From positions 6,882 through 70,881 of the forward strand of contig DATKGY010000051.1 in the NCBI GenBank assembly GCA_035510535.1: 64,000 bases of DNA. Reading direction: 5' to 3'. Below, piece after piece: positions 4,790 through 23,705 of this stretch. The translations under genes were made by a program, and so were the position numbers. The notes beneath the pieces are model-generated. The model searched no databases and was not told the DNA's origin. It saw nothing but the letters and a program-made list of their open reading frames with translations. The DNA is from Patescibacteria group bacterium. Its GTDB lineage: Bacteria; Patescibacteriota; Microgenomatia; Levybacterales; UBA12049. The number at the start of each line of letters is the position of its first letter. The stretch's first letter is position 1.

Positions 4790-5776
4790 ATGAGAAAAAA
4801 AATAAAAATTGTTGTAATAGGTGGCGGAACCGGTAGCTTTGTAGCTTTATCGGGTCTTAAAAAATATGAGGTTGACCTAGCCGCAATTATCACGATGATG
4901 GATAGCGGCGGCTCAAGCGGTAGATTACGCGATGAGCTCGGTGTGCTTCCTCCTGGCGACGTCAGGCAGTGCTTGGTTGCTTTGGCAAAATCCTCAAAGC
5001 TTTTGCGGGATATGTTTAATTATCGGTTTGAAGAAGGAGGATTAAAAGGACATACTTTTGGTAATATTTTTCTTTCAACCCTCACAAAAACTACCGGCAG
5101 TATGAAAAAGGCGATTGAGGAAGTTGGAAAAATCTTGCGTATCCGGGGGAGGGTAATCCCGGTTACTTATACCAAAAGCGATCTATGCATTGAGCTTGAA
5201 GATAGAACAATTATTGAAGGGGAGACGCATATCGATGAAGTTGAGAGCCGCGAAAAAAGAGCGAAAATAAAAAGAGCTTTTCTAAAACCTAAAGCCAAGG
5301 CTAATCCTGATGCTAAAAAAGCAATTAAGGAAGCAGATGCAATCATTATCGGACCGGGTGATTTATACACAAGCATTATTCCAAACCTTTTAGTAACAGG
5401 GATAAAAACCGCAATTAAAAATTCAAAAGGCAAGAAAATTTATGTTTTAAACCTGATGACTAAATATGGCCAAACAACTAAACATACCGCTAAGGATCAT
5501 ATTGAAGATTTAGAGCAATATACTGGGAAAGGTCAGCTAGATGTTATTTTGGTTAACAAAAAAATACCCAAACAAGAAACACTTGCCTGGTACAAGGATT
5601 TTGATGAACATCCCGTTGAAGATGATTTGAACGAAAAAAGTAAATTACAGGTAGTGAGAAAAAATTTGATAAACGACGTCATCTTGGTCGCTGATTCTTC
5701 AGATAGCTTAAAAAGAAGTATCATCAGGCACGATAGCGAAAAGTTAGCGAATGCTATAATGGAAATCCTCGGCTAA
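4790..5776 (+). CDS. YvcK/CofD-family protein (gluconeogenesis factor / UDP-sugar-binding morphogenesis protein family)
   Basis: N-terminal VVIGGGTGSF and MDSGGSSGRLRDELGVLPPGD motifs typical of the YvcK/CofD family. Confidence 0.7.
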   Translation: MRKKIKIVVIGGGTGSFVALSGLKKYEVDLAAIITMMDSGGSSGRLRDELGVLPPGDVRQCLVALAKSSKLLRDMFNYRFEEGGLKGHTFGNIFLSTLTKTTGSMKKAIEEVGKILRIRGRVIPVTYTKSDLCIELEDRTIIEGETHIDEVESREKRAKIKRAFLKPKAKANPDAKKAIKEADAIIIGPGDLYTSIIPNLLVTGIKTAIKNSKGKKIYVLNLMTKYGQTTKHTAKDHIEDLEQYTGKGQLDVILVNKKIPKQETLAWYKDFDEHPVEDDLNEKSKLQVVRKNLINDVILVADSSDSLKRSIIRHDSEKLANAIMEILG

Positions 5777-5827
5777 GAGGATACGTCCGATTGAATGTAT
5801 ACTCTCTAGGTATTATAATATCAATAT

Positions 5828-6838
5828 ATGACACAACTTTTGGGGCTAACACTGCTTTCTTTAGTCGTCACAGCAATTTTAATCATCCCCTTCATCGATT
5901 TTCTCTACAAAATAAAACTTAGAAGGCAAGATCAGGCAACCGTAGACCCATTCAATAAACCTACTCCGCTTTTTGACAAATTCAACAAATGGAAAGTGGG
6001 CACACCATTCGGAGGAGGGCTTTTAATTATTTGCGTTTCCACAGTGATATTTTTGTGGTCTTTTGGAATACTTAACGTAAAAATAAACCCTTTAGAAATA
6101 TTCGTTATCTTATTTACCTTTATTAGTTTTGGAGTGTTGGGCTTATATGATGATGGTAAGAAATTAGCCAACGGTGCGAAGGTACCTTTTTTTGGTTTAA
6201 GATTGAGGTACAAGTTTTTACTACAGCTAGCTATTGCCTTTATTCCGGCAACCATTCTCTATACAAAATTAGGTTATAGTTTCGTTTTTATTAGAGGAAT
6301 TGGGCTTACAGACATTGGGTTTTTGTATATTCCGTTTGCGGCGTTTGTGATTGTTGCTTTCGTGAACGCTTTCAATATCACCGACGGACTAGACGGATTG
6401 GCTCCGGGGTTAATGCTTATTGCTTTGGTTTCATTTTTGGCAATCTCCTATACGAATGTAGACCAATCATTGGGAATTTTTGTGGCAGTACTCATGGGAA
6501 GCATTGCCGCTTTCTTATATTTCAATATCTTTAAAGCCAGAATTTGGCTTGGAGATGTCGGTTCAATGTCTTTGGGAGCATCGCTGGCTATAATTGGCCT
6601 TTTAACCGGTAAAACTTTAGCAATCGTTGTTATTGGCGGAGTTTTTGTTTTGGAAGTCGGTTCATCTTTAATACAGCTTCTGAGCAAAAAATTCTTAAAA
6701 AGGAGAATCTTGCCGGCCGCACCCTTGCATTTATATTTCCTTAAAAGAGGTTGGGATGAGCCAAAAATTGTTATGAGAGCCTGGTTACTGGGCGCTTTCT
6801 TTGCAATTCTTGGTCTTTACCTCGCTTTCATTAAGTAA
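5828..6838 (+). CDS. mraY: Phospho-N-acetylmuramoyl-pentapeptide transferase
   Basis: Polytopic membrane protein with NAFNITDGLDGLA and GDVGSMSLG motifs. Confidence 0.9.
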   Translation: MTQLLGLTLLSLVVTAILIIPFIDFLYKIKLRRQDQATVDPFNKPTPLFDKFNKWKVGTPFGGGLLIICVSTVIFLWSFGILNVKINPLEIFVILFTFISFGVLGLYDDGKKLANGAKVPFFGLRLRYKFLLQLAIAFIPATILYTKLGYSFVFIRGIGLTDIGFLYIPFAAFVIVAFVNAFNITDGLDGLAPGLMLIALVSFLAISYTNVDQSLGIFVAVLMGSIAAFLYFNIFKARIWLGDVGSMSLGASLAIIGLLTGKTLAIVVIGGVFVLEVGSSLIQLLSKKFLKRRILPAAPLHLYFLKRGWDEPKIVMRAWLLGAFFAILGLYLAFIK

Positions 6839-7911
6839 TGAAAAGAATTGATTTAATTCTGCTCGTCTCCGTTTTATTCCTGACGTTTTTTGGCCTTTTC
6901 ATGATTTATGATGCTTCTTCTTTTGTGGCCTTCCGCGACTTTGTTGACAAATATCATTTTGTCAGAGACCAATTCTTTTGGATCATTTTGGGTCTGATTG
7001 CGCTTCTTTTTTTCTCCCGCTTTGATTATCATAAGCTTTACAACTTAGCGATACCGATATTACTCGTGGCGGTTGGATTATTGTTGGCAGTTTTTATTCC
7101 CGGAATTGGTGTAAAAACTTTGGGCGCCAGCAGATGGCTTAATTTAAGATTTACAACTCTGCAGCCTTCGGAATTTGTAAAAATTGCCCTAGCAATCTAT
7201 CTTGCCGCCTGGTTTTCAAAAAAAGAAAAAGGCCGGATTTGGGCTTTTCTATTACTCTTGTCGATGATAATTGCCTTAGTTATTTTAGAGCCGGATATGG
7301 GCACGGCAGTTATTGTTCTCGCCGAAGGAATTATTTTATATTTCCTATCAGGAGCCCGAACGCTATATTTTTTTATTCTCGCCCCGATTATCGCAGTGAT
7401 AGGCATTTTGTTTGCGAAGCTTGAGCCCTATCGGGCGGCCAGAGTCACGTCTTATTTAAATTTCAATCAAGACATCAGCAGTTCTTCTTATCATGTCAGG
7501 CAAATCTTAATTGCCCTAGGTTCAGGTGGGCTAACCGGAGTCGGTTTGGGCAATTCTTTACAAAAATATGCTTATCTTCCGGAAAACGCGACCGATTCAA
7601 TCTTTGCGATTATTGCCGAAGAATTGGGATTTATTGGAGCGCTTTTAATCATCGTAGTTTTTGTAATTATTATTTGGCGGGGGTTTTATATTGCTATTCA
7701 TGCCAAGGACCAATTTGGTAAGCTATTAGCAGGAGGAATTATAACTTTTTTAGCGATGCAAATTGTTATTAATTTAGCTGCCCAGACAGCGCTTTTACCT
7801 TTAACCGGTATTCCATTGCCTTTTATTTCATATGGGGGATCGGCGTTGATAATTAATCTCACGGCTGTCGGAATACTTTTAAACATTGCCAAGCAAGAAG
7901 AAAAAGTATGA
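6838..7911 (+). CDS. ftsW: SEDS-family peptidoglycan polymerase FtsW
   Basis: FtsW/RodA/SpoVE family (PENATDSIFAIIAEELGFIG, PLPFISYGGS). Located between mraY and murG. Confidence 0.8.
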   Translation: MKRIDLILLVSVLFLTFFGLFMIYDASSFVAFRDFVDKYHFVRDQFFWIILGLIALLFFSRFDYHKLYNLAIPILLVAVGLLLAVFIPGIGVKTLGASRWLNLRFTTLQPSEFVKIALAIYLAAWFSKKEKGRIWAFLLLLSMIIALVILEPDMGTAVIVLAEGIILYFLSGARTLYFFILAPIIAVIGILFAKLEPYRAARVTSYLNFNQDISSSSYHVRQILIALGSGGLTGVGLGNSLQKYAYLPENATDSIFAIIAEELGFIGALLIIVVFVIIIWRGFYIAIHAKDQFGKLLAGGIITFLAMQIVINLAAQTALLPLTGIPLPFISYGGSALIINLTAVGILLNIAKQEEKV

Positions 7912-10737: not shown

Positions 10738-11859
10738 ATGTTAATAAAACCGCAAACAACTAATTTTGCCAAAATAAGAGTGGCGGGAATTGGAGGCGGT
10801 GGAAGCAATGCTTTGAATTCTATGATTTCTCAAAGCACAATTGCAGGAGTAGATTTTATCGCCATTAATACCGATGCCCAGTCGCTTCTCTTAAACCAGG
10901 CAGCCACTAAAATGCAAATCGGTGAAGATTTAACTAAGGGTTTGGGTTCGGGCGGAAATCCGGAAATTGGAAAGCAAGCAGCAGAAGAATCTTACGAAAA
11001 AGTCAAAGAAATGTTGGAGGGGACAGACATGCTCTTCTTGGCCGCGGGATTGGGCGGGGGGACAGGTTCGGGGGCAACTCCTGTAATTGCCAAAGCGGCT
11101 AAAGAAGTCGGAGCGCTAACGGTTGCAGTAGTCACAAAACCATTTGCGTTTGAAGGCACAAGGAGAATGGTTACCGCAGAGGACGCGATAGAAGAAATAA
11201 AGGATAAAGTTGATACTTTAATTGTTATCCCCAACCAAAGAATACTAGATGTAGTTGATAAAAAATTGTCTCTTTTGGAAGCGTTTAAAGTTGCCGATTC
11301 GGTTTTAACGCAGGGCGTGCAGGGTATTTCGGATTTAATTACCCTGCCGGGTTTAATTAATGTTGATTTTGCCGACGTTAAAACAATTATGGCAAACGCG
11401 GGTTCGGCTTTGATGGGCATTGGTACTGGAGTTGGGGAAAACAGGGCCCAAGCCGCCGCCAGAGCCGCAGTCGCATCGCCTCTTTTGGAGATCTCTATGA
11501 ATGGAGCTAGAGGAGTTTTGTTCAACATTATCGGCGGACCCGATTTAACCATGAACGAGGTTGACGAAGCGGCAAAAATTATTGCCTCGGAAGCGGATCC
11601 GGACGCTAACATCATTTTTGGCGCCACGATTGACGAAACCATGCATGACCAGCTCAAGATCACAGTAATTGCCACCGGTTTTGATTCAACCAGGCAAACG
11701 CTAAAAGAATTCATGACACCAACTATTAACCGGGTAATGGAACAATCTCAATCATCAAGCCCAGTAAATAATATTGAACCGCCGGTACCAAGCGAACCGC
11801 CGGTTGAAGAAGAAGACGACACCTGGGACATTCCCGCTTTTTTGAGGCAAAAGAACTAA
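10738..11859 (+). CDS. ftsZ: Cell division GTPase FtsZ
   Basis: GIGGGGSNA and [12 protein letters not shown] tubulin signature. C-terminal conserved peptide [11 protein letters not shown]. Confidence 0.95.
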
Positions 11860-11884
11860 AACTCTAGCTTCATATTTTTAATAG

Positions 11885-11905
11885 AGCACCTTCGGGTGCT
11901 TTTTT
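11885..11905 (+). terminator. Rho-independent terminator after ftsZ
   Basis: agcacc-ttcg-ggtgct hairpin followed by a T5 run. Confidence 0.7.
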
Positions 11906-12035
11906 ATTACTTAAAAGTACTACGGGAGTAGGCATAAAGTTCGTTGATATTAATGGGATGTAGGGTTATATATATCAGTGAAGTTTAGGCATAAAAATAG
12001 TGGAATTTATCGGATTTTTATAGTATAATAAATTC

Positions 12036-12059
12036 AATAAATCCACTGTTTACTCCCCT
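12036..12059 (+). repeat. 24-nt direct repeat, copy 1 (aataaatccactgtttactcccct), in the integrase 5-prime leader
   Basis: Matches 13077-13100 at 23 of 24 positions. Its 3-prime part forms the hairpin tactccc/gggagta that contains the integrase SD. Confidence 0.8.
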
Positions 12060-12070
12060 AGAAAGGGAGT

Positions 12071-13081
12071 ATGAAAATAGACGAAAAAGATTTCCTCTCA
12101 TTTATCACAATTAAGAAGAATTTAGCTAATCAAAGCGTTAGGCATTGTAGAATACGCCTTAGAGTCATTGTTAAGTGGCTAGACGGCAGGGAATTGACTA
12201 AACAGCTTGTTGAACAGTTCTTCATGGAGTTAAAAAACAAAGGCCAAAGAAATAACTCTTTAAATACATATTATTTTGTCTTTAGACAAATACTTGATTA
12301 CTTCAGAGACAGGGGAATCCAAGTAGATTTCTTAGATGGTTTCTCGTCATTTAAAAAAGAGAAGCCGGATATAGTTATTCTATCCATAGAAGAAATAGAA
12401 AAATTAATTAACACCTCGCTTACATATGGAAAGCTGCAGGGGAAAGATTGTACATTTCTAAATATTAGATATGGAATATTAACCATGTTCATTGCGTATA
12501 CGGGTTGTAGATTCTCTGAGGCGTCAAAACTAAAAATCAAAAATCTAGATTTAAGCGAAGGAAAGGCAACGTTTATTGACACTAAAACAAACGAGAATAG
12601 AACAGTATATTTCACAGATCCTTTAATTACCAATTTAAAAGAGTTAATTCTAGGTAGGAAAATTGATGATTTAGTGTTCAGAAATTCTCAAGAGAATGAA
12701 ATAAATCCCCAAGACTTCTCAACAGATATAAAAAGACGAGCTAAAAAAGCGGGTATTATTAAGAGAATGTATCCACACGTTTTAAGGCATAGTTATATAA
12801 CGCACATGCTAGAAGCGGGCGTGCCAATTACTGAAGTTGCTACGCTTGTTGGACATAAAGACATTCAAACAACTTATTCAACCTATATGCATCTTGCGGA
12901 TCAAACATTAAGGAAAGCATCAATGAGAAATCCACTGATTATAAAAAATGTAAATCCGGTTGAAATATTGAAGTCAATTAGAGAAGCAATTGAAAATTTC
13001 CATGTTGATAATGATTCTAGGTTTTTCTATGATTTTAGGGATAAAGGAAATGAGATAGAGTTTAAGTTACTAGTTAAATAA
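12071..13081 (+). CDS. Tyrosine-type site-specific recombinase/integrase
   Basis: C-terminal catalytic region HVLRHSYITHMLEAG...LVGHKDIQTTYSTYMH (HxxR ... H ... Y). N-terminal SAM-like core-binding domain. Confidence 0.9.
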   Translation: MKIDEKDFLSFITIKKNLANQSVRHCRIRLRVIVKWLDGRELTKQLVEQFFMELKNKGQRNNSLNTYYFVFRQILDYFRDRGIQVDFLDGFSSFKKEKPDIVILSIEEIEKLINTSLTYGKLQGKDCTFLNIRYGILTMFIAYTGCRFSEASKLKIKNLDLSEGKATFIDTKTNENRTVYFTDPLITNLKELILGRKIDDLVFRNSQENEINPQDFSTDIKRRAKKAGIIKRMYPHVLRHSYITHMLEAGVPITEVATLVGHKDIQTTYSTYMHLADQTLRKASMRNPLIIKNVNPVEILKSIREAIENFHVDNDSRFFYDFRDKGNEIEFKLLVK

Positions 13082-13100
13082 ATCCATTGTTTACTCCCCT
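13077..13100 (+). repeat. 24-nt direct repeat, copy 2 (aataaatccattgtttactcccct), overlapping the integrase stop codon
   Basis: 23 of 24 identity to 12036-12059. Confidence 0.8.
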
Positions 13101-13105
13101 CGTTG

Positions 13106-13369
13106 CTATGAACTTTGTGTACCTCCTTCCATAAATGCTTTAAATACTTGTAATAGTTCGTGTTTGTTGCAATACCAACCATCGTTAAAGAAATTACAGA
13201 CGCAATCATGCACACATAACGCTTTGCCATATGACACTTTAAGATATGCCTTTTCAAAATCAACATGGCTAATGATTGAAGAAATTCTTCTTTTCTCTCC
13301 ACTAGAGGTATACATCTTCATCAGCCCGTTTTTAAAATACAGTTTCAATAATATTTTTGTCTTTTTCAT
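13106..13369 (-). CDS. Hypothetical small protein (87 aa)
   Basis: ORF only. It competes with an overlapping plus-strand ORF at 13164-13415. No recognisable motif. Confidence 0.25.
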   Translation of the reverse strand: MKKTKILLKLYFKNGLMKMYTSSGEKRRISSIISHVDFEKAYLKVSYGKALCVHDCVCNFFNDGWYCNKHELLQVFKAFMEGGTQSS

Positions 13370-13371
13370 AT

Positions 13372-13398
13372 TGTCCGATTTGTCCGATTTGTCAACTT
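13372..13398. repeat. Tandem 9-nt repeats tgtccgatt x2 plus a degenerate third (tgtcaactt)
   Basis: Read directly from the sequence. Intergenic. Confidence 0.7.
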
Positions 13399-13430
13399 TT
13401 ACTAACTATTCTTAAATTTCTTATATAAGA

Positions 13431-13470
13431 GTAAAAAACTTAGTTTTACTTAGTTTTTACTAGTTTTTAC
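13431..13470. repeat. Iteron-like array: one inverted plus three direct copies of tagttttTAC
   Basis: The sequence reads gtaaaaaact / tagttttact / tagtttttac / tagtttttac, contiguous and downstream of the minus-strand module. Confidence 0.7.
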
Positions 13471-13503
13471 ATGCTATGTAACATATATAACTAGAACATA
13501 TGT

Positions 13504-13785
13504 TTACTTATCTTCTAATAAGGATTCTTTAATTAGCTCTTCGTTATACTTATCGATTACCTGTGAACAGAGATCTGTCCAATCGTCTTTGGTATGGGTT
13601 TTGAAAAGGGGAATCCATGATTTTCCATTAAAATAACTTGGAGCAGTAACGAAGTCTTTTCCGGTTTTTTCATCTCGGAAGATTTTAAAGCCACGCAATT
13701 GATGGGTGTCAAAATCTATTGTTGCCCTTGCTTTAACTTTTGAATCGTTACTTGTTTTTGTAATATTAATATTAATTAGCTTCAT
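13504..13785 (-). CDS. SpoVG-like small nucleic-acid-binding protein (putative)
   Basis: 93 aa. VKARATIDFDTHQLRGFKIFRDEKTGKDFVTAPSY resembles the SpoVG core (A.A.I.D..F.V..I.V.....G.FV.MPS). Confidence 0.4.
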   Translation of the reverse strand: MKLININITKTSNDSKVKARATIDFDTHQLRGFKIFRDEKTGKDFVTAPSYFNGKSWIPLFKTHTKDDWTDLCSQVIDKYNEELIKESLLEDK

Positions 13786-13787
13786 GT

Positions 13788-14015
13788 TTATTCCTGATAT
13801 AGGCGACTCTTTACGTTCTTAATAGCTGAAAAATAATCTTGTGGGTTAACTTGAACTTTTCTTTTCCAATAAGCCTCAATCAGGCTTTCTAATTCTTTGC
13901 TTCTTTTGAAGAGAAATATTGTTTTGTTTGGATAAGTTTTATCTAAAGAGTCGATAGGAAAATAAAGATTTAAAAAAGCGGATAACGCTAGGTCTGATGT
14001 TTGATAGTGCTCCAT
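13788..14015 (-). CDS. DUF5659-like small protein
   Basis: 75 aa. The pattern SDLALSAFLNL...IFLFKRS...EAYW resembles the DUF5659 family common in CPR mobile elements. Assigned from memory, not from a search. Confidence 0.4.
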   Translation of the reverse strand: MEHYQTSDLALSAFLNLYFPIDSLDKTYPNKTIFLFKRSKELESLIEAYWKRKVQVNPQDYFSAIKNVKSRLYQE

Positions 14016-14102
14016 AATTAATAGAAGTATAAATTGTGCTGGTTAATAAAACATTCTGCTAAAGTATGGATTTTCGGAGAAAAACTAAGTTATTTGTCGA
14101 TA

Positions 14103-14909
14103 CTACAGGGGGTAGATTTGATTAAAATAGGCTTTTGTTTCATCCAATATTTTAGCGCATTCCATCCTAGTAGGAACATAGTCCTTGCCAAAATACGATG
14201 GGGTTTTGTCTATTAATGCATTGATTATTTCATCGATCTCTCCCCACGAATGTCTTTCTAGATCTTTCCATATGTAAATCTTTACGCCTAATGCAAATCT
14301 ATTAATATCAATTTTTTGAAGTTTTTTTCTTGGAAGATTTTTCAATACTGGTTCAATCTCTGGCTTCCAATGTTCTTTAAGGTATTGATAGACATTGTCA
14401 ATCTTAACGTCTTCAGATAAAACAATAGATGGATAATTATTCCTGTAATAAATACTGATACCTGCTTGCCACCATTCGATGTCGTCTTGTGTTGTAGCGT
14501 ACGATGGGGGGAAATGAAAAGAAATAGGTTCATAAGCGAAAGGTATAGGTAAAATATCTGTTAGAATTTTCATGCTAATAAACATCGACCATTCTTCGGA
14601 GATTTTATATTTTTGCAAAAAATTTCTCATAAGAGTCAACATCTTAGTAAAAGTTTTTTCGTCTACCTTTTTCCTTATATTTGTAAAAAAATTAGGATCG
14701 CTGCGGTCGTATGGAATTAGTTTGATTTCAAGGTCTTGTCTAATCTTGGAGAGTTCCTTAGATAGGGTTGGATGATAAGTTAAGATAAGGGCATAAGCAA
14801 ATATAGAAGGCTCAAGTGAATCTTCATGCCAATCAACAATCTCAAAAAGTTTTTTGTTAAAAATAAATGATTTTAAAATTTTTCCAATCTTCATATTAAT
14901 GCTGAGCAT
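14103..14909 (-). CDS. Hypothetical protein (268 aa), first gene of the minus-strand module
   Basis: Long ORF with host-like AT-rich codon usage and no motif recognised. The start could be the internal MKIGKIL. Confidence 0.5.
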   Translation of the reverse strand: MLSINMKIGKILKSFIFNKKLFEIVDWHEDSLEPSIFAYALILTYHPTLSKELSKIRQDLEIKLIPYDRSDPNFFTNIRKKVDEKTFTKMLTLMRNFLQKYKISEEWSMFISMKILTDILPIPFAYEPISFHFPPSYATTQDDIEWWQAGISIYYRNNYPSIVLSEDVKIDNVYQYLKEHWKPEIEPVLKNLPRKKLQKIDINRFALGVKIYIWKDLERHSWGEIDEIINALIDKTPSYFGKDYVPTRMECAKILDETKAYFNQIYPL

Positions 14910-14994
14910 ATTTTACTACTTCTTTTTTATACTGTCTATTTTGTTGAATTTAGTTGAGTTTTCCGAGACTTTAAAAAATAGAATAGTAAGCCTA

Positions 14995-15070
14995 TTGACG
15001 CAAATAATATTATTTACTAAGATTTATTTAGAGACCTTGCTTGGGCAAACCTGCGGGGTCTCTATTTTTT
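14995..15070 (+). promoter_or_regulatory. Candidate promoter (TTGACG-17-TAAGAT) followed at once by a strong hairpin plus T-run
   Basis: ttgacg 14995-15000 and taagat 15018-15023. Hairpin tagagacc 15029-15036 / ggtctcta 15057-15064, then T6 at 15065-15070. Confidence 0.4.
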
Positions 15071-15121
15071 GACTTCAATCAAGAATAAGAGTATAAAAAG
15101 TAAAGTAGTTATTTATTATTT

Positions 15122-15850
15122 GTGCCTAAATCAAAGAAGCATATAAAGAAAATAGATGAAGCTAAACCAGTAAATATTCTAGCGGATAAGCAATTGCTGG
15201 TGGTTATCGTAGTTGTATTAATAATATGTGTTCTGATTGGAATTAAGACAGTAAGTTCTTATGTATTAAGCTCTAATATAGCCCCAACTCCCACAATAGA
15301 TTTACCTATTCCAACTCCAACTCCGACTGATACTCCTACTCCAACTCCTGAAATCAAAATTACTAATGTTCCAATTGCAGATCCTGGTAGTAAAACAACA
15401 GATACTGCAGTTAGGCAAACTGGAAAATATACCTTCGAAGGAAACCTACCATGTGATGACAGAATGGGAGATGCATCAGAAATATATGCTGCACTTAATA
15501 ATTATAGGCAGGTTCATGGAGCAAGCTCTCTTGCATGGAATGATAAGCTAGCATCTGTAGCACAAATGAGAGTTGGTCAAATTACAGCAAATGGGGGGAG
15601 ATCAGATAGCCATGCTGGATTTATTACTTTTACAAACGATCAAAGCAACTATGCGAAAGTTGGATTTAGTGAATTAAGTGAAAATACGGGAGGAACTGGG
15701 AACTGTCCTTTGCTTGGAGTTCATGTCATTGAATGGTTATTTGCTAGAGATGCGCCACATAATAATGCCCAATTGGATAGATGGGATGCAGTAGGAATTG
15801 CTGAAGGTCAAAATAATGTTGTAGTGATTTTTGGAAGAAGCCCTTTGTAG
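15122..15850 (+). CDS. Membrane-anchored secreted CAP/SCP (PR-1-like) domain protein with a Pro/Thr linker
   Basis: GTG start. TM helix LLVVIVVVLIICVLIGI, linker PTPTIDLPIPTPTPTDTPTPTPE, then a CAP-like core (YRQVHGASSLAWNDKLASVAQ...HAG). Confidence 0.6.
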   Translation: MPKSKKHIKKIDEAKPVNILADKQLLVVIVVVLIICVLIGIKTVSSYVLSSNIAPTPTIDLPIPTPTPTDTPTPTPEIKITNVPIADPGSKTTDTAVRQTGKYTFEGNLPCDDRMGDASEIYAALNNYRQVHGASSLAWNDKLASVAQMRVGQITANGGRSDSHAGFITFTNDQSNYAKVGFSELSENTGGTGNCPLLGVHVIEWLFARDAPHNNAQLDRWDAVGIAEGQNNVVVIFGRSPL

Positions 15851-16018
15851 GGAATAACATAAATAAACGAAAAATATTATAAATTTTATATCCCAGAGTA
15901 AATCGCTTAGCCTCAAAACAATTTTAGGGTAGGGAGTTTAGCCTCAAATCTATGTCGTAATATAGATGTTGTGCGACATAGAGCATATTAATTATTTATG
16001 TGATATAATTTATTTAAT

Positions 16019-16912
16019 ATGCCAGGAAGAGGGAGACCAAGAAAAAATCCTATTCCTGCCCCACAAATTCAAGCTACCACACCGGTAGCTGCTACGGTTG
16101 TTGTTCAAGCACCACCAAAGAATGTTTTATTTTTTATTGACCAAACAGAAGCTGGTATCGGTAGAAGGGACATAGAGCTTGTTGAAAAAGTCTTAGATGG
16201 TAAATCGGGAGATTTATTATATCTAGTATTACAAACATACGGCGGTGATGTATATTCTGCCGTTAAAATTATGCGCATTCTGCAATTCAAATTTAAGGAG
16301 ATAAAAGTTATTATTCCTGATTTTGTTTACAGTTCTGGTACGATAATGGCATTAGGTGGAGATACGCTTTATTTCGATGTTGACGCATGCATTGGACCTT
16401 TGGATAAACCAATGGAGAATCCAAGAGATGGTTCTGATATCTCCTCACTGGATATTACAAATACTTTAACAAATATTGCTTCTACGATTGAGTCAATCGC
16501 AACTTCTTTTTATGGAAGCCTCAGGGTGGATAGCAAGATTAAGCTTTCTAAAATTGAAGCTGCAAAATTAGCTTATGAATCTGCTGTAAATATTGTTAAC
16601 CCAATTATAAATAAAATTGATCCGTACTTTTTACAAAGTGGATACAGGCAAACCCAAATCGGTTTAAGATACGCCGTAGATATGTTAGCTAGCAGAATGA
16701 AAAGGAATAATATTAAAGAGGCTGTCGATACCGCTCTTGATTTAGTTAATAAATACCCTGCTCATAGTTATGGCATTTATCGTGAAGAAGCAAAATATAG
16801 TTTAAATCTGGAAACAGAAAATTTAGAAACCCTAGCAGAATGGGGCACACTTAAAGTTAAGTTTGATACATTAAAGAAGTCTTCAAATGCAATTGAATTT
16901 ATGGTATTCTAA
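16019..16912 (+). CDS. SDH-family Clp-fold serine protease (S49/ClpP-like) with an N-terminal AT-hook
   Basis: LVLQTYGGDVYSAVKIMRIL...YSSGTIMALGGDTLYF...GPLD matches the serine-dehydrogenase-proteinase / SppA-ClpP fold pattern. The N-terminus GRGRPRKNP is an AT-hook motif. Confidence 0.6.
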   Translation: MPGRGRPRKNPIPAPQIQATTPVAATVVVQAPPKNVLFFIDQTEAGIGRRDIELVEKVLDGKSGDLLYLVLQTYGGDVYSAVKIMRILQFKFKEIKVIIPDFVYSSGTIMALGGDTLYFDVDACIGPLDKPMENPRDGSDISSLDITNTLTNIASTIESIATSFYGSLRVDSKIKLSKIEAAKLAYESAVNIVNPIINKIDPYFLQSGYRQTQIGLRYAVDMLASRMKRNNIKEAVDTALDLVNKYPAHSYGIYREEAKYSLNLETENLETLAEWGTLKVKFDTLKKSSNAIEFMVF

Positions 16913-17139
16913 TTACATGTTGAGTGGATATTTATATTTTAGCGATACTAACAAAAGGGATATTAAAACTGAGCCTAATAATATAAAAGTTACTGATATT
17001 TTAGAAGGCGGTCGAGAGATATTTTCTGATTGGATTGAAAAGGAAGCAACTAAAGTATTAGAGGCCAGGAAATCCTCCAAAGTTGAAAAGAGAAAATAAT
17101 CTACACTTGTTTTTCCAACATAAAAAGTCTATATTATCC

Positions 17140-17221
17140 TTAGGTGTTTTTAGTAGGAATTGAAGCTAGAAACAAGGGATGTCTTGGATAATCCCGCATG
17201 GCCTTGACAGATATCATTTAA
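17140..17221 (+). repeat. Decayed ftsZ-tail scar unit (copy D)
   Basis: About 60-65% identical by hand alignment over about 80 nt to the unit at 18391-18469. The tail part gat aat ccc gca tgg cct tga is a degraded DIPAF... sequence. Confidence 0.55.
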
Positions 17222-17239
17222 CTTTGCCATTATAAATAT

Positions 17240-18388
17240 ATGGAACCAAATACACCAAATAATGATTTAATTGCAAAAGCGAAAATTGATACCCTAGATA
17301 TTGTTTCTCCTCAAGAAAATGATAGTTTGGGTTCTACTGCTTGGAGAGAATACTTAAATAGCGGTTCTCTGGGAGATGTATGGTCTGTTCCTGAAGGAAG
17401 TCCTTATGCTAGGTTTCAAAAAAGTAGCACTATAGACTCCATAGATAAATGTGATAGCGTAATCAAACCACGATATAGCAAAGGCGAACAAACGAGTGAA
17501 AAAGGAATAGATACTTTAATAGCCACAGGTGTTTTAGATTCACATACTGCAATTGTTTTAGATTCTGGGCATGCTCATAGCGTAGCAATGGCAGTTAAAT
17601 TAGCAGAGCAGGGTTATCAACCCGTTGTGATGTTAAATGATGAAGTAACTTCAAATAGATCAAATTCTGCTGAACAAGGATTAGCAACTTTATTATATTT
17701 TGCTGAACAAGTGAAAATTTTAAAAGCACAAGGTAAAATTAAATCAGATTCTCCTCCAGTTTTTATTTTAGATTTTCATCGTAGCTCTAGTTTCGTGCCT
17801 CAAGATTTTCCAACTGGAGAAGAATTGAGTCAAGCTGGAATAGATAAGGTAGTGTATCTCAATGAAGGAGATCAAAGTGGCGAAATTAATGCCAACTATC
17901 AGTCTACTGATAGACTATCAAGGGATTTAAAGTCAATTGCTTCCAATTGGGAAAGTGAGGGTCTTAATATAACTTATACAGGGGTATCTCCTTGGGTGGG
18001 AGAGCGTAACGCTTTTTTCTCACAGGGTTTAGTTCGTGGATTAAGTCGTAGATTAAATATGGGCGGCGCTTATGTTAGTGATGGTTATGCTTTTGAATCC
18101 GGATTGTCATATTCCAATATGGATCCTGAGGTATATGGAAAGAAAGATGCTTTAGGAATTGCAATGCATCACAATAGAGAAAGGTTTATTTTTACTAGAG
18201 AGGGTAAGTTGGAGGTAATCAATGAAAGTGGAGTGGCAAGAGCTATGCAACCTGAGGAAATCGAACAATTTCAAGAAGCAATAAGAAAAGCATTGGAGCT
18301 TCATCCAGACAACTTACAGATGATGGACGTATCTAATAGATTATCACAAGCAATTCAACCGATTAGTTTAGAAAATAAAGATAAATAG
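17240..18388 (+). CDS. Hypothetical protein (382 aa)
   Basis: Long ORF lying between two ftsZ-tail scars. No motif recognised. Confidence 0.5.
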   Translation: MEPNTPNNDLIAKAKIDTLDIVSPQENDSLGSTAWREYLNSGSLGDVWSVPEGSPYARFQKSSTIDSIDKCDSVIKPRYSKGEQTSEKGIDTLIATGVLDSHTAIVLDSGHAHSVAMAVKLAEQGYQPVVMLNDEVTSNRSNSAEQGLATLLYFAEQVKILKAQGKIKSDSPPVFILDFHRSSSFVPQDFPTGEELSQAGIDKVVYLNEGDQSGEINANYQSTDRLSRDLKSIASNWESEGLNITYTGVSPWVGERNAFFSQGLVRGLSRRLNMGGAYVSDGYAFESGLSYSNMDPEVYGKKDALGIAMHHNRERFIFTREGKLEVINESGVARAMQPEEIEQFQEAIRKALELHPDNLQMMDVSNRLSQAIQPISLENKDK

Positions 18389-18390
18389 GT

Positions 18391-18469
18391 TTAGGCGTTT
18401 TTAATAAAAGTAGAAGTTAGAAAAGGGGATAGATAAGACATTCCCGCCTTCCTTAGACAAAAAAATTAG
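18391..18469 (+). repeat. ftsZ-tail scar unit (copy B). The tail proper is 18437-18469.
   Basis: gac att ccc gcc ttc ctt aga caa aaa aat tag encodes [10 protein letters not shown]. It is 25 of 33 nt identical to ftsZ 11827-11859 and all differences are synonymous. Confidence 0.85.
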
Positions 18470-18490: not shown

Positions 18491-18523
18491 TGGCGGCCCG
18501 CATTTTTGCGACAAAAGAATTAA
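18491..18523 (+). repeat. ftsZ-tail scar (copy C)
   Basis: tgg cgg ccc gca ttt ttg cga caa aag aat taa encodes [10 protein letters not shown]. Confidence 0.85.
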
Positions 18524-19195: not shown

Positions 19196-19239
19196 ATTAA
19201 GTTCGCTCAAATTCTTTCAGAACTTCGCTTCGGCTACGG

Positions 19240-19270
19240 CCTGCATTCATTCTTAAGGCAGAAGAATTAA
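19240..19270 (+). repeat. ftsZ-tail scar (copy E) carrying a 4-nt duplication
   Basis: cct gca ttc [attc] tta agg cag aag aat taa. Removing the duplicated attc restores PAFLRQKN*. As it stands the in-frame reading is FLRQKN*. Confidence 0.8.
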
Positions 19271-19294: not shown

Positions 19295-19322
19295 TTGACT
19301 TTCAAGATTTTTGTGGTATAAT
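19295..19322 (+). promoter_or_regulatory. Near-consensus sigma70-type promoter (TTGACT-16-TGgTATAAT) facing the flp operon
   Basis: ttgact 19295-19300 and tataat 19317-19322 with an upstream TGn extended -10. Confidence 0.5.
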
Positions 19323-19630
19323 CCATGCTTAGTGACAAAATAAACCCGGACTAATTTGCTGTCCGGAGTTTTGTTCTGTTACTTAGTTTTAATTGCACTT
19401 TGACAAGTTGCGAAAAATATTTTCATCAGATGGTGACGCCTTGGACATTAAGCGATTAGTGTCTAGAGCGTCATCATCAGATGATCATAGTAGTTACAAA
19501 GAAAGGAGGGTACTCGACATATTGCATTTTCAAAAGAAAGTAGTATGAAGGGAGTATCTATAAGTTAGTACGGATTAGGTTCGGTTTCACGGTTGTTCAA
19601 TCACGCAAGAGAATAGGAGTGAGGACTACG

Positions 19631-19774
19631 ATGTTTCGTTTTTCATCCAAAGGACAAGGTCTCGCTGAATACGCACTCATTCTCGCTCTCGTCGCCATCG
19701 TGGCTGTCGTTGCACTGCTCTTTCTGAGCGGCGAAATCAAGTCAATCCTGAGCATCATCGGCAAGTCGCTCTAG
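19631..19774 (+). CDS. flp: Flp-family type IVb pilin (47 aa). Absent from the ORF track because of its size.
   Basis: My translation is MFRFSSKGQGLAEYALILALVAIVAVVALLFLSGEIKSILSIIGKSL. It has the Flp processing motif G-xxxx-EY followed by a hydrophobic helix. SD ggag lies about 10 nt upstream. Confidence 0.75.
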   Translation: MFRFSSKGQGLAEYALILALVAIVAVVALLFLSGEIKSILSIIGKSL

Positions 19775-19917
19775 CGCGTCGCACTCGTCACTTGCTTAAC
19801 TGCAAGCTTTATTTTGAGTCAAACGCAGTATGGAGGTGGATACCCACAAGGCTTAAAAGCCAGCGTCTCCCGTCAAGTAACCGAGTCATCGAAGACTCAC
19901 GAGTCAAGGAGGAAACC

Positions 19918-21195
19918 GTGTTTAGTGTTCGTCGATTTTTCGCTGTATTCGCATGTGCTGCACTTTTGGGTGTTAGCATATTTGCGATCACGGCCAGTCC
20001 TGTCGTTCATCAACAATCAGTAGCTGCGTGGTCCCAACCGGGATTCACCGCGGTCTACGACTGCGACGGCAATGTCATCACCACCGTTAATCTCGCCAAC
20101 GAAGGCCAAAACGCGAACTACGATTATCAATTGGCATGGGGACCGGTAGGGCTTACCAAGCAGAGTGATCTGAACGCTCTCAACTGGACGACCTATACCG
20201 GCGCACAAGGGAACAACCAACAGACCATCGCGGCTGGAACTGGAGTTCTCTACGTACGCTGGGTAGCTGATTACAACAGTTGGAACTCGGCAACTCCTAG
20301 CGCAGCTAGCAATTGCACGGCGCCGCCTGACCCGCCTGTCATCACGCCTGTCTGCATGACGACGCTTCAGAGCGACCATTCAGCTGACGACCCCGGCTAC
20401 ACGGAGTACAACTGGTACATCGTGCTTCCCGGCGTCGCGAACGACTACAACATGGACTATTCAACAAACGGAACCGACTGGGTTGGACCTGATGACTGGT
20501 CTGATCAAAACGATCCCATTGCTGGCGGCGGCTGGGGCGGACCTATGACTACAACCTCGTACCCGAACTTCGGGATCGACGGCCACGAGTTGTGGGTTCG
20601 CTGGTCTGCCTACAGTAGTGTGGTTATCGGTCCGGTCGTAAATCCATACCCAGTTACGGCAGCTGGTCGTTCCTGCGGCACTCCTACGCCTCCGGCTCCT
20701 CCTGTCGTAAAGTGCGGCGGAACGGTTTCGTTCAGCAATGTCCCCGACGGCTGGAAACTGATCATCGAACCTGACGTCCTTGTTACCTCTGGTTTCGATT
20801 CCATCAGCCTGGCCCCCGGCGACTACACTTACCAATGGCGAGATGCCGATAACAACGACATGGTTGGCGGCACCTTCACCATCGGCGTCTGTCCGACTCC
20901 GACTCCGACACCCGCACCTACGTGCGTTGTCTCTGTCAGAGCAGACACGGTTGTCCAAGTCACGCCCGCACCTTGCGCAACTCCGGTTGTCACACCGACT
21001 CCGAAATCGACTTCGACTCCGGTCGCTTCGACCTCTGTCAAGCCAAAGAAAACTCCGGCAACTACCAGTATCGCTGGCGGTTCAGATGAATCAGACTCCA
21101 ACAGCATCCCGCTGTTCCCTCTGTTCATCTGCCTGATTCTTGGCGGAATTGGTGTTGGGGTGACTCTCATGGTCCAAAGGCGAGCGGCCCATTGA
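19918..21195 (+). CDS. Secreted or surface protein with an internal repeat, Pro/Thr linkers and a C-terminal TM anchor
   Basis: The likely start is GTG 19918, 5 nt after AAGGAGG; the ORF-track start 19792 lacks an SD. N-terminal signal/anchor FFAVFACAALLGVSIFAITA. Repeated motif LYVRWVADYNSW / LWVRWSAYSS. CPTPTPTPAPTC linker. C-terminal LFICLILGGIGVGVTLMV-QRRAAH. Confidence 0.65.
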   Translation: MFSVRRFFAVFACAALLGVSIFAITASPVVHQQSVAAWSQPGFTAVYDCDGNVITTVNLANEGQNANYDYQLAWGPVGLTKQSDLNALNWTTYTGAQGNNQQTIAAGTGVLYVRWVADYNSWNSATPSAASNCTAPPDPPVITPVCMTTLQSDHSADDPGYTEYNWYIVLPGVANDYNMDYSTNGTDWVGPDDWSDQNDPIAGGGWGGPMTTTSYPNFGIDGHELWVRWSAYSSVVIGPVVNPYPVTAAGRSCGTPTPPAPPVVKCGGTVSFSNVPDGWKLIIEPDVLVTSGFDSISLAPGDYTYQWRDADNNDMVGGTFTIGVCPTPTPTPAPTCVVSVRADTVVQVTPAPCATPVVTPTPKSTSTPVASTSVKPKKTPATTSIAGGSDESDSNSIPLFPLFICLILGGIGVGVTLMVQRRAAH

Positions 21196-21485
21196 CCTGC
21201 TAAACTAGCCTGATCCACCTGGATTTAGACTAGCTCGTAGTGGAGAAGCTCAGCCATAGCTTGGTACAAAGGATCCATTTAGGATCTAACGCCAAAGCTT
21301 CTTGATGCTGAGCAACTCCGATTTGGAGAAAGAAAGGACTACTATGTTCAAAAAACAACCCGTTTCGGGATATCCAATCACAGCTAACGCTGAGAAAGGT
21401 CCCGAACCATTTTCGCAACGCACTCAAGTGTTAAAGGCACCGCAAGGTGATAGACTCTAAAGAGTATTTACTGCACGCGCAGTCT

Positions 21486-21510
21486 GCTGACTTTCGTCAG
21501 CTACTTTTTT
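21486..21510 (+). terminator. Rho-independent terminator closing the high-GC segment
   Basis: gctgac-tttc-gtcagc hairpin, then tac plus a T7 run. Confidence 0.6.
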
Positions 21511-21554: not shown

Positions 21555-23705
21555 TTACTCTTTCGTAGGCTTAGAATATCTTTCTTTGGAGACGCGGATT
21601 ACCGTTTTTCTATTCTGGTTTTTACTCATAGGGAGTGGCAGAGTTTGCGCCAAAAACGGCGGGCAGGTAATACTATCTATTGAAAGTTTTGTTAAGATTT
21701 GATAATTTCCCAGAGCCAATAAATCTTCTTCTTTAAATCTTTCCCCTAATTCTTTAGCCAAATAGAAAGCGTCCCCGGCGCCGACTATGAATGAAATTAA
21801 GCTTCCGACATTACCAAAAATTGCCGCTCTGACATCTTCGGGAACTTGCGCCATATACTGATTTGCCATAATTAAATCTAAGTGATATTTTCTGGCCTCG
21901 GACAAAATTTTAATAAAGGAATTAGTAGCAAAATTTTGGAACTCGTCAACATACAGATAAAAATCCTTCCTTTGCTCTTCAGCTAAATCAACCCGATTCA
22001 TCGCCGCCAGTTGTAGTTTTGTAATTATCATCGCGCCCAAAAGTGAAGAATTATCTTCTCCTAATTTTCCCTGAGAAAGATTAAGCAGTACAATTTTTCC
22101 TTCGTTCATAATTTTTTCCAAATCAATGGTTGACTTAGGAGCGCCGATAATATTTCTAACAATATTAGAAGATATAAATTGACCAACCTTATTAAGAATA
22201 GGCGAAATAGATTCGCTCATTAACCGTGGCGTCATGGTTTCAAATTCATTCAGCCAGTAATTTTTTAAAACCGGATCGTTTAGCTTTGCGACAACTTTGT
22301 CCCGGTAACTTTTATCCGTTAATAAACCGGGAACTTCCAAAAAAGTCGAATCGGGAACTTCCAAAAGGGTCAAAATAGTATTTCTTAAAATATACTCAAG
22401 CCGTGGTCCCCAGGAATTTCCATAAAGTTTTTTAAAGATAGAAACAATACCGGAAGCAACTAGTTCTTTTTGCGTGTTCCCGACCTCAAGCGGATTAAGA
22501 TGAAAAGAGCTTGAAGAAGAATCTGACGGATCCAGATAAATTACGTCGTTAATCCGGTTTGACGGAATGTAATCCAAAATTATTTCTGTTAAGTCCCCAT
22601 GCGGATCAATTACCGCTACCCCTTCTCCATTTCTGATATCGTTGATCGCCATATTGGCGATGAGCGTGGATTTTCCGGCGCCGGTTTTCCCGATAATATA
22701 AGTATGTTTTCGTCTATCCTTTCCTTTGATGCCAAAATTCGTCAGTTTATTTTTAAATTCGGTATTAGCAAAAAAATTAATCTCCTGTTTTTCTGCGTCG
22801 CCCAAACCTTGAGCGATTGGTAAATTTTCCGGCGGTTCGGAAAAGATGGCTTTAGTCCAAGAAAGATTGTGAATTTTGGCCAGCTGTTCCGTCGGTAGGT
22901 GGTAAAGACTGGCAATTTCCGAAACATTTAAAACTTGATTTGACGGGATAAAAGACCTACTGCGCTTAATAAGTGCTCTTTCAAATCTGTCTTTTTGCCA
23001 AAGATGCGGGCGTCTTAAATAAAAGCTGTTGCCGATGGGATTATTAAAAATAGAAAATCCGTTGACAATATTAAAGAATAAACCCGGATTGTCACTTTTA
23101 ACTAAGATTCTTATACCGGTGCGGAAACCGTTTTGGCTGATTTTATCGGTAATAATTTTTTTATATTGATTAAGAGGGTTCTCTCTGTCCGGATCTGTGC
23201 TTTTAAGAATTGCCGTTTGGCCTTTTGTCTGCCAGCCGGTACCGATTGGTACCAGTAGGTATTGAATTACCGCTTTGTCATCTTTATCCAGTTTTGCCAA
23301 AATCCCTAAAATTGAGCTTAGCGGATCAACGTCCTTAAAATCTTTATAAGTTTTTATTGGGAACAAAGCTCCATGTTTTAATTTAAGCCTTCCTTCATAA
23401 AGTTCTCCCGGGGAACTTAAGATATCCGGTAAGTAGTCCTTATTTTTTGCAATTAGCGCTTTGGGGTATTGAGCGGTTAACTGACCTTCAATAAAAGTTT
23501 GGAATTTCTGCGGAATCACAATAAAAAAATGAGTTCTCTGCTCAAAGGTGGCAATCTCTAGGCTAATTGGTATCCCGCGCCTGTAAAAATAGACTATTTG
23601 ACGTTTTAAGTTAACCAGACTGGAGAGAAATTGCGTCATGGCTTCCGAAGTTTCCTCGGTATTTCTGGGTGTTTTAATTTCCAAAATAACTTTGTCGCTG
23701 TCCAT
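21555..23705 (-). CDS. FtsK/HerA/TraD-VirD4-superfamily P-loop ATPase (type IV coupling-protein-like), soluble
   Basis: Walker A IIGKTGAGKST and Walker B FYLYVDEFQNF. C-terminal ARKYHLDLIMANQY...GNVGSLISF resembles the TraD/TraG C-terminal domain. No TM helices seen at the N-terminus. Confidence 0.6.
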   Translation of the reverse strand: MDSDKVILEIKTPRNTEETSEAMTQFLSSLVNLKRQIVYFYRRGIPISLEIATFEQRTHFFIVIPQKFQTFIEGQLTAQYPKALIAKNKDYLPDILSSPGELYEGRLKLKHGALFPIKTYKDFKDVDPLSSILGILAKLDKDDKAVIQYLLVPIGTGWQTKGQTAILKSTDPDRENPLNQYKKIITDKISQNGFRTGIRILVKSDNPGLFFNIVNGFSIFNNPIGNSFYLRRPHLWQKDRFERALIKRSRSFIPSNQVLNVSEIASLYHLPTEQLAKIHNLSWTKAIFSEPPENLPIAQGLGDAEKQEINFFANTEFKNKLTNFGIKGKDRRKHTYIIGKTGAGKSTLIANMAINDIRNGEGVAVIDPHGDLTEIILDYIPSNRINDVIYLDPSDSSSSSFHLNPLEVGNTQKELVASGIVSIFKKLYGNSWGPRLEYILRNTILTLLEVPDSTFLEVPGLLTDKSYRDKVVAKLNDPVLKNYWLNEFETMTPRLMSESISPILNKVGQFISSNIVRNIIGAPKSTIDLEKIMNEGKIVLLNLSQGKLGEDNSSLLGAMIITKLQLAAMNRVDLAEEQRKDFYLYVDEFQNFATNSFIKILSEARKYHLDLIMANQYMAQVPEDVRAAIFGNVGSLISFIVGAGDAFYLAKELGERFKEEDLLALGNYQILTKLSIDSITCPPFLAQTLPLPMSKNQNRKTVIRVSKERYSKPTKE

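Follow-up and report, generated by a model that had tools for sequence, protein, structure and literature searches.

At hypervariable surface-antigen loci, such as those for capsule and O-antigen, homologous recombination in conserved flanks exchanges what lies between, and the content of guanine plus cytosine (GC) is often atypical. Within the Patescibacteria, a survey of 125 genomes describes hundreds of islands and documents atypical-GC islands and horizontally transferred genes (PMC12455944). Here we describe a GC-rich segment in a 64,000-nucleotide stretch, hereafter the window, of a Patescibacteria group bacterium (GenBank assembly GCA_035510535.1, contig DATKGY010000051.1, positions 6,882 to 70,881). 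The segment carries a gene for a Flp-type pilin and a gene for a 425-amino-acid (aa) surface protein, and it is probably a horizontally derived two-gene surface cassette of foreign, high-GC origin, lodged in a hypervariable slot of a low-GC genome. This reading starts from what was seen directly: a shift in composition, the two junctions, gene models, homologues with their genomic contexts, conserved borders around variable contents in the slot, and strain polymorphism.

Atypical-GC islands of horizontal origin are an ordinary kind of event, and as a class the cassette is not new. Compared with the islands of PMC12455944, the cassette is likewise a compositionally deviant accessory block with a patchy distribution among relatives; it differs in having no integrase or att sites of its own, in its fixed host-encoded borders (a promoter plus leader RNA, and a 3' element) and in a high GC content that is maintained in several lineages. 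Chloroflexota does not appear in the table of donor phyla of that paper, and the string 'Chloroflex' is absent from its main text. With capsule and O-antigen loci the slot shares conserved flanks, variable contents, strain-level replacement at sharp breakpoints, atypical composition and products predicted to be surface-exposed. Whereas those loci encode polysaccharide pathways and lie below the host in GC, the slot holds one to three protein-coding genes (pilin, anchored Ig-like protein), lies above the host in GC and has a structured leader RNA as its left border.

The two gene products have described counterparts as well. One type of Flp/Fap pilin from Tad (type IVc) pili, the 'GQGLAEYALILALIAIAAV' type of 46-47 aa, occurs in tad operons of Chloroflexota (Limnocylindrales); it has the same length as the window pilin and shares with it the G-x4-EY processing motif and the hydrophobic helix. 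Unlike those pilins, which sit in tad operons, the window pilin is an orphan within 64 kb, and its gene has a surface-protein gene as partner in the genome of a low-GC member of the Patescibacteria. The 425-aa protein shares with Gram-positive adhesins and S-layer proteins (LPXTG proteins, SpaA-fold domains, SbsC, SiiE) a layout of signal peptide, beta-sandwich modules, Pro/Thr-rich linker, C-terminal hydrophobic helix and basic tail, and the likeness extends to weak SpaA and CopC hints in its family and to the types of module at the top of its structural search. It differs from LPXTG proteins in having no LPXTG beside the helix and no match to a sorting-signal model, and from Gram-positive adhesins in that its structural search gave no significant match and that, with its homologues, it forms a small separate family. 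The particular features of the locus are the Chloroflexota-type Flp, the small uncharacterised family of anchored Ig-like proteins, and the fixed expression slot bordered by a structured leader RNA that has not been described before.

The features of the slot are given below in window coordinates; the sister species is the metagenome-assembled genome (MAG) SMAG_U14562 (DATKGX01; contigs L001-4, L010 and L012), and L100 is a contig from a further lineage with the same slot borders.

19238..19269, forward strand: degenerate copy ('scar') of the ftsZ 3' end, repeat family D1, 66% identical to 11827-11858, with an equivalent in the sister species
19295..19322, forward strand: sigma-70-type promoter (TTGACT, 16-nucleotide spacer, TG-n-TATAAT), 11/12 matches, extended -10
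19332..19502, forward strand: structured leader RNA with three hairpins
19631..19774, forward strand: gene for a Flp-type (type IVc/Tad) prepilin of 47 aa, motif KG/QGLAEY, with a GGAG/GAGGA ribosome-binding site upstream
19791..19815, forward strand: weak hairpin with a T-run 3' of the pilin gene, a possible partial terminator by consensus match
19918..21195, forward strand: gene for the 425-aa anchored surface protein, GTG start preceded by AAGGAGG, defined from homologues, modular alignment and a structure model
20701..20973, forward strand: C-domain repeat region of strain-variable copy number
21222..21485, forward strand: conserved non-coding 3' element, the right border of the slot, kept in four lineages
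21486..21510, unstranded: terminator hairpin with a T-run that separates the cassette from the convergent ATPase gene; the sister species and L100 have an identical copy

The scar shows where ftsZ ended ancestrally, immediately before the locus. Promoter and leader thus lie upstream of the cassette and a terminator downstream, both genes are intact with ribosome-binding sites, and secretion and anchoring signals are present.

The composition of the segment departs sharply from that of its surroundings. GC content is 0.382 over the 64-kb window and 37.7% when the segment is left out; between 19600 and 21300 it is 0.544, which is 5.5 standard deviations above the other 1.7-kb windows (z = 5.5), the richest 1.7-kb stretch elsewhere being 0.443. 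In 200-nucleotide windows it peaks at 0.565-0.61 between 20200 and 21100, with a core of 56-61%. The initial annotation, which had reported a GC-rich segment in a 35-45% GC genome, is borne out by these values (0.544 vs 0.377, sliding-window peaks to 0.61), and its hand counts (36/60 at 20341-20400, 21/60 at 14341-14400) are exact. GC at third codon positions (GC3) is 0.587 for 19918-21195 and 0.604 for the pilin gene, which gives 0.589 for the cassette, vs 0.21-0.41 in the adjoining genes and 0.372 across 17 host core genes pooled; the shift relative to the host that had been described for 19918-21195 is therefore real, but the wording 'strongly G/C-biased' was too strong for an absolute value of 59%. 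In relative synonymous codon usage (RSCU), the two cassette genes are anticorrelated with host genes (r = -0.19), and they correlate with the sister-species cassette (r = 0.73) and with high-GC genomes (0.39-0.49). GC at second codon positions (GC2) of the 425-aa gene is also high (0.54), owing to amino-acid content; such content is not the cause of the GC shift, because the gene for the hydrophobic pilin and the spacer separating the two genes (0.50 GC) are shifted too. Spurious long open reading frames (ORFs) on both strands, which had been called typical of high-GC DNA, are indeed present, antisense or off-frame and 118-165 aa long (20017-20379, 20461-20958 and 20829-21218 on the reverse strand, 20780-21136 on the forward strand).

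The change in GC at the edges of the segment is abrupt. Switch points in composition and in homology to relatives place the left border at ~19600 and the right border at ~21222-21233, and homology breakpoints and composition boundaries coincide. The ftsZ-tail scar and promoter that had been recognized in the left flank stand where they were said to be, as does the terminator; the terminator does not, as had been proposed, form the right end of the segment, which is slightly narrower.

The sequence of the prepilin (MFRFSSKG/QGLAEYALILALVAIVAVVALLFLSGEIKSILSIIGKSL in full, the slash marking the predicted processing site) combines the G-x4-EY motif with a single hydrophobic helix as in Flp pilins, and at the predicted mature end (MFRFSSKG/QGLAEYALILALVAIVAVVALLFL...) Glu stands at +5 and Tyr at +6; length, G/xxxxEY processing motif and hydrophobic helix are those of short prepilins (about 45-80 aa). 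In Pfam the pilin falls short of the Flp_Fap threshold (PF04964; 20.5 bits vs a cut-off of 32.2, E = 4.2e-4), and its match to Class_IIIsignal is likewise weak and below cut-off. A database search returned 4093 homologues, many of them named Flp or carrying PF04964, and precomputed PF04964 hits were found in many close homologues (70-77% identical). Leaving out the window's own lineage and a 2-kb contig (L096), the closest pilin, P0014, is 88% identical over 91% of the query (38/43 aligned residues; E = 2e-12). Its gene lies on contigs of 0.67 GC, directly upstream of genes for RcpC, TadZ, CpaF and two T2SSF (TadB/TadC-type) proteins, a full tad operon, so that the window pilin is homologous to a pilin of a bona fide Tad system. 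In clustering at 90% identity, CpaF of these contigs groups with proteins that bear the names Chloroflexota and Ca. Limnocylindrales. P0014 thus lies inside a tad operon of Limnocylindrales (Chloroflexota), in agreement with the earlier remark that this type of Flp is common in Chloroflexi. One assembly, ERZ27247317, holds both a P0014 contig (Limnocylindrales) and a 100% match to the window.

The 425-aa protein begins with a signal peptide, continues with two beta domains (N-terminal and middle) and one Ig/FnIII-like C-domain (aa about 258-332), and ends, after a linker rich in Pro and Thr, in a transmembrane helix and a basic tail. Neither Pfam nor NCBIfam has a family that matches it, and a scan across the whole family gave only the weak SpaA and CopC Pfam hints. 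The family is small, with 258 clusters at E <= 1e-3 among 1.84 billion representatives; in the genome collection, matches to the C-domain profile were confined to the sister MAG and, at chance level, a single case in Flavobacteriaceae. The full-length AlphaFold model is all-beta with terminal helices and of low confidence (predicted local distance difference test, pLDDT, 53.6), and it was left out of the fold search, whereas the C-domain is modeled well (pLDDT 85.9) as an Ig/FnIII-like beta-sandwich. Against PDB, Foldseek found no significant match for the C-domain (best E = 0.087, TM score at most 0.55), the top, non-significant matches being generic beta-sandwich, FnIII-like, S-layer and adhesin modules.

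The C-termini of the family (alignment columns about 700-775) show a loose P-x-T-[TS]-[TS] motif, a Gly/Ser-rich spacer of 12-20 residues, a hydrophobic helix and a basic tail; in the window protein the motif stands 15-20 residues upstream of the helix, and the tail is QRRAAH. There is no LPXTG immediately before the helix, no NCBIfam sorting-signal model matched the C-terminal anchors at cut-off, and Pfam scans of 30 window ORFs, which are part of those in the window, found no sortase. We also observed that the C-terminus of the family is laid out like a sorting signal, yet fits no described type.

Outside the slot, the family resides on contigs that are uniformly rich in GC, where it forms two or three paralogues per contig, in contrast to the single copy in the window: L005 (0.556 GC, paralogues in tandem), L008 (0.60), L097 (0.635), L095 (0.634) and L007 (0.64). 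When these contigs were searched by tblastn against 0.8 Mb of Patescibacteria loci, the surface-protein family itself was the only shared gene. The closest homologues of both cassette genes thus occur in other, composition-matched surroundings, in Limnocylindrales/Chloroflexota for Flp and on uniformly high-GC contigs for the surface protein.

Comparison with relatives revealed that four lineages share the same slot borders while the contents between them vary, as follows.

Window: Flp followed by a surface protein of module order N1-M-C
Sister species: lipoprotein (184 aa), Flp, perhaps a zinc-ribbon ORF (81 aa), and a surface protein of module order N2-M-C
L009: zinc-ribbon ORF (83 aa) followed by a surface protein of module order N1-C-C
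L100: one unrelated anchored protein (217 aa) and nothing else

Every slot cassette is richer in GC than its host, at 0.52-0.64 in the window, the sister species (0.52-0.59) and L009, and at 0.46-0.56 in L100. On its ATPase side, L100 is 99.84% identical to the window at the nucleotide level up to 21233, where homology ends; from there on (2248-3600) it encodes no pilin but a secreted protein of 217 aa, which has a PK/PT linker and is anchored at its C-terminus. The leader is less well kept in L100 (81% identical), and on the far side ftsZ gives way to VKOR and DsbA-like genes, so that L100 is either a recent recombinant or a rearranged strain. In L013, L015, L032 and L060, whose ATPases are 81-95% identical in amino acids, the cassette is absent downstream of the orthologous gene, and its presence among close relatives is accordingly patchy. 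In addition, putative ORFs with paired Cys-x2-Cys (zinc-ribbon-like) motifs go with the cassette in L010 (8922-9167) and L009 (1249-1500) and also occur in L096 (293-1189), with no equivalent in the window.

In contrast to these contents, the borders are conserved. All four lineages have the same -35 hexamer in the promoter, with a -10 hexamer that is conserved in part, and the 170-nucleotide leader RNA is kept upstream whichever cassette follows. RNAalifold predicts 53 pairs in the leader, 14 of them with compensatory double changes among the four lineages; a covariance model found exactly one copy per lineage and no further copy in 0.76 Mb of related loci. A T-rich run follows the first leader hairpin, and an attenuator role is possible. 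At the right border, structural support for the 3' element is weak (2 compensatory pairs), and a small ORF within it (21345-21460) is not conserved in frame, being shifted by a 1-nucleotide indel in L100 and lying in another frame in L010; the element is possibly a small RNA or a recombination anchor. Rfam contains no family for the leader (19332-19502) or the 3' element (21222-21485), with chance-level matches only (E >= 0.3).

The host is a soil or peat species of Patescibacteria (candidate phyla radiation, CPR) that is, judged from synteny, related to SMAG_U14562: a syntenic contig with 81-82% nucleotide identity is named 'Patescibacteria group bacterium isolate SMAG_U14562'. Genes of the window include a dcw cluster ending in ftsA and ftsZ (10738-11859), IleRS, ParB, F-type ATP synthase, DnaE and envelope glycosyltransferases. 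On its two sides the slot has the following neighbours.

11859-18436: AT-rich integrated element of 6.6 kb in the ftsZ 3' end, GC3 0.25
21555..23705, reverse strand: 716-aa DUF8128/DUF87/TrwB ATPase (VirD4-like coupling-protein family), a conserved neighbour and not foreign DNA

Encoded in the integrated element are a tyrosine recombinase (12071-13081), a protein with a CAP domain, an SDH/ClpP-like protease and a further protein of 382 aa. The element is bracketed by ftsZ 3'-end copies at 11827-11858 and 18437-18468 and supplies its own replacement ftsZ tail; additional degenerate copies at 18491-18522 and at the scar suggest earlier insertions at the same site. The ATPase is 95% identical in the sister species, has host composition and is kept by relatives without the cassette. 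Contig L022, from a distant relative whose ATPase is 62% identical, has a separate island of 0.55-0.62 GC (5200-7400) upstream of the orthologous ATPase. This island encodes a 310-aa membrane protein and a 271-aa protein whose long stalk is rich in Pro/Thr/Ser and whose C-terminus has an 'FPPTGG' motif, followed by a helix and an RRR tail; high-GC surface-protein islands may be recurring beside this ATPase gene.

The GC-rich stretch is real and correctly assembled. The abruptness of the composition shift, and the fact that contigs of other assemblies break in the 425-aa gene (20713-20973), would suit the alternative raised by the initial annotation, namely an assembly chimera in which a high-GC fragment of another organism was joined onto a Patescibacteria contig; this is refuted by independent contigs that span each junction at 99.9-100% identity, and its probability is close to nil. 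In all, eight contigs match the window at 99.9-100% across the junctions; they stem from different samples, assembled independently by ENA, JGI and Logan. An exact-sequence pilin look-up gave five that cross the left, low-GC/high-GC junction at 99.9-100% identity to the window (L085, 16983-20841; L086, 16903-20713; L088, 18437-20823; L089, 19304-20973; L090, 19338-20730), and an exact ATPase look-up gave two that cross the right junction at 100% (L098, 20645-27705; L099, 20701-27705). Moreover, at least five additional assemblies show this arrangement in the sister species. The independent assemblies break between 20645 and 20973, and it is there that L089 (1559-1901 against window 20701-20973) has an in-frame 231-nucleotide (77-codon) duplication of the C-domain; because this duplication sits at the breaks, they reflect strain variation in repeat number and not a false join. 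Also highly improbable is that the cassette travelled as cargo of the adjacent integrase element, or of a conjugative system including the VirD4-like ATPase. Such an origin is brought to mind by the tyrosine recombinase element 0.5 to 8 kb to the left, with ftsZ-tail repeats around it, and by the coupling-protein-like ATPase that adjoins on the right. However, contig L087 is without 11859-18436, exactly between the repeats, and retains the cassette at 100% identity; since, in addition, the element is AT-rich, the opposite of the cassette, the cassette is not its cargo. The ATPase, for its part, is host-like in composition and conserved where the cassette is missing, and orphan VirD4-like coupling proteins are common in Patescibacteria (PMC12102498). 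The slot contains no integrase, and a repeat search found no att-like repeats flanking 19600-21230, only the ftsZ-tail repeats of the neighbouring element, so that the mobility genes or att repeats that an island may carry are absent. Furthermore, tblastn found no match to the 425-aa protein in phage and plasmid collections, and no viral contig matched the C-domain profile.

If the cassette is neither misassembled nor carried by its neighbours, its genes could still be native, with a GC content set by Pro/Thr/Ala/Gly-rich composition or by GC-biased gene conversion at a recombination hotspot. The GC2 of the 425-aa gene, the clearly recombinogenic nature of the locus and the different high-GC surface-protein island of L022 would agree with this. 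Nevertheless, we consider it very unlikely, as GC3 and RSCU are shifted also in the pilin gene, which is hydrophobic and not Pro/Thr-rich, and the spacer is shifted as well; the nearest relatives of the pilin are Chloroflexota tad-operon pilins; the surface-protein family is multi-copy on uniformly high-GC contigs; and homology breakpoints match composition boundaries. A foreign origin need not be a recent one. The initial annotation had proposed a recent horizontal acquisition from a high-GC donor, and the foreign, high-GC origin is supported by RSCU, GC3 and homologues; that it was a single recent transfer into this genome alone is unlikely. For such a transfer speak the foreign codon usage, the strain-level replacement at the slot, which shows ongoing uptake, and the match in GC between the cassette (0.54) and L096 (0.525), which bears the closest Flp outside the lineage of the window (85% aa identity to the window Flp, dS 0.27). 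However, no near-identical donor was found among 5.8 billion proteins, the closest sequences in the databases searched being 85-88% identical for Flp and 77% for the surface protein (one domain), and L096, only 2 kb long and with neighbours that differ from those of the window, is possibly an island itself. In addition, the sister species and L009 carry homologous high-GC cassettes in the same slot. Synonymous divergence (dS) between window and sister is 0.9-2.1 in flanking genes, with nonsynonymous divergence (dN) of 0.03-0.10, and 1.1-1.3 in cassette genes, with dN about tenfold above the flanks (Flp 0.28, surface protein 0.43). The window Flp is much further from the sister Flp (67% identical in amino acids, dS 1.07) than from that of L096, and dS between the window and Chloroflexota Flp is 1.8.

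Several observations weigh against a foreign cassette in an exchangeable slot as well. No single independent contig covers the entire cassette, and left and right contigs overlap by only ~200-330 nucleotides, within the repeat region. No Tad assembly genes (CpaF/TadA, TadB/C, TadV) are present within the 64-kb window. Cluster look-ups gave no organism names for the proteins of L005, L007, L008, L095 and L097; the high-GC contigs that carry the surface-protein family are without taxonomic placement, and the direction of transfer is one that we infer. The C-domain of the window (75 aa) is 77% identical to that of an unplaced contig, 75% to that of the sister species and 73% to that of L005, and the sister C-domain is nearest to that of L005 (80%); identities of 77/75/73% over 75 aa are too close for phylogenetic resolution or for monophyly of the Patescibacteria copies. 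Timing is ambiguous, in that two histories both fit the numbers. The cassette was possibly acquired once, long ago, from a very GC-rich donor (GC3 about 0.85), after which its composition was ameliorated in part and its proteins evolved fast, or it was possibly replaced repeatedly, with recent uptake from moderately GC-rich sources (about 0.53-0.56 GC; e.g., L096 and L005). Some replacement is recent, because L100 combines a 99.84%-identical ATPase region with a different cassette; a single recent event confined to this genome is not supported.

For a foreign surface cassette in a variable slot, we infer the direction and timing of transfer, the mechanism of recombination, expression, and a surface or adhesive function. 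The ultimate sources of the cassettes would be high-GC organisms, and the pilin would derive from a Tad pilin of Limnocylindria/Chloroflexota type. Homologous recombination within the conserved borders would be the simplest account of the variable contents, with cassettes swapped between them, and the host promoter and leader would express whichever cassette is installed. By prediction, the pilin-like subunit and the Ig-like stalk protein are displayed on the outside of the cell, where a role in attachment is plausible. With no Tad genes in the 64-kb window, the assembly of the pilin into a pilus may be regarded as putative. Natural competence is a possible route for the uptake of cassettes, and Patescibacteria are reported as naturally competent via pili and ComEC in the introduction of PMC12455944.

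A bolder reading, which we regard as quite unlikely, is that the slot is a dedicated surface-protein 'expression site' of an episymbiotic clade, in which a fixed host promoter and a novel structured leader RNA would express interchangeable cassettes taken from the high-GC bacteria on which the symbiont lives, including a near-copy of their Tad pilin, and in which the cassette would set host recognition or attachment; it draws on sequence similarity and on co-occurrence in one assembly (ERZ27247317). If it were true, the foreign GC itself would point to the host. As the hosts and attachment factors of most Patescibacteria are unknown, the locus offers a testable lead to partner identity and host-range determinants, because a strain-variable, surface-directed locus bears the signature of co-occurring Limnocylindria (Chloroflexota). 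Our results also indicate that a sharp GC step in a MAG of this phylum is not necessarily a binning or assembly error. In addition, the two conserved non-coding border elements, one of which is a well-supported structured RNA, are candidate new regulatory RNAs.

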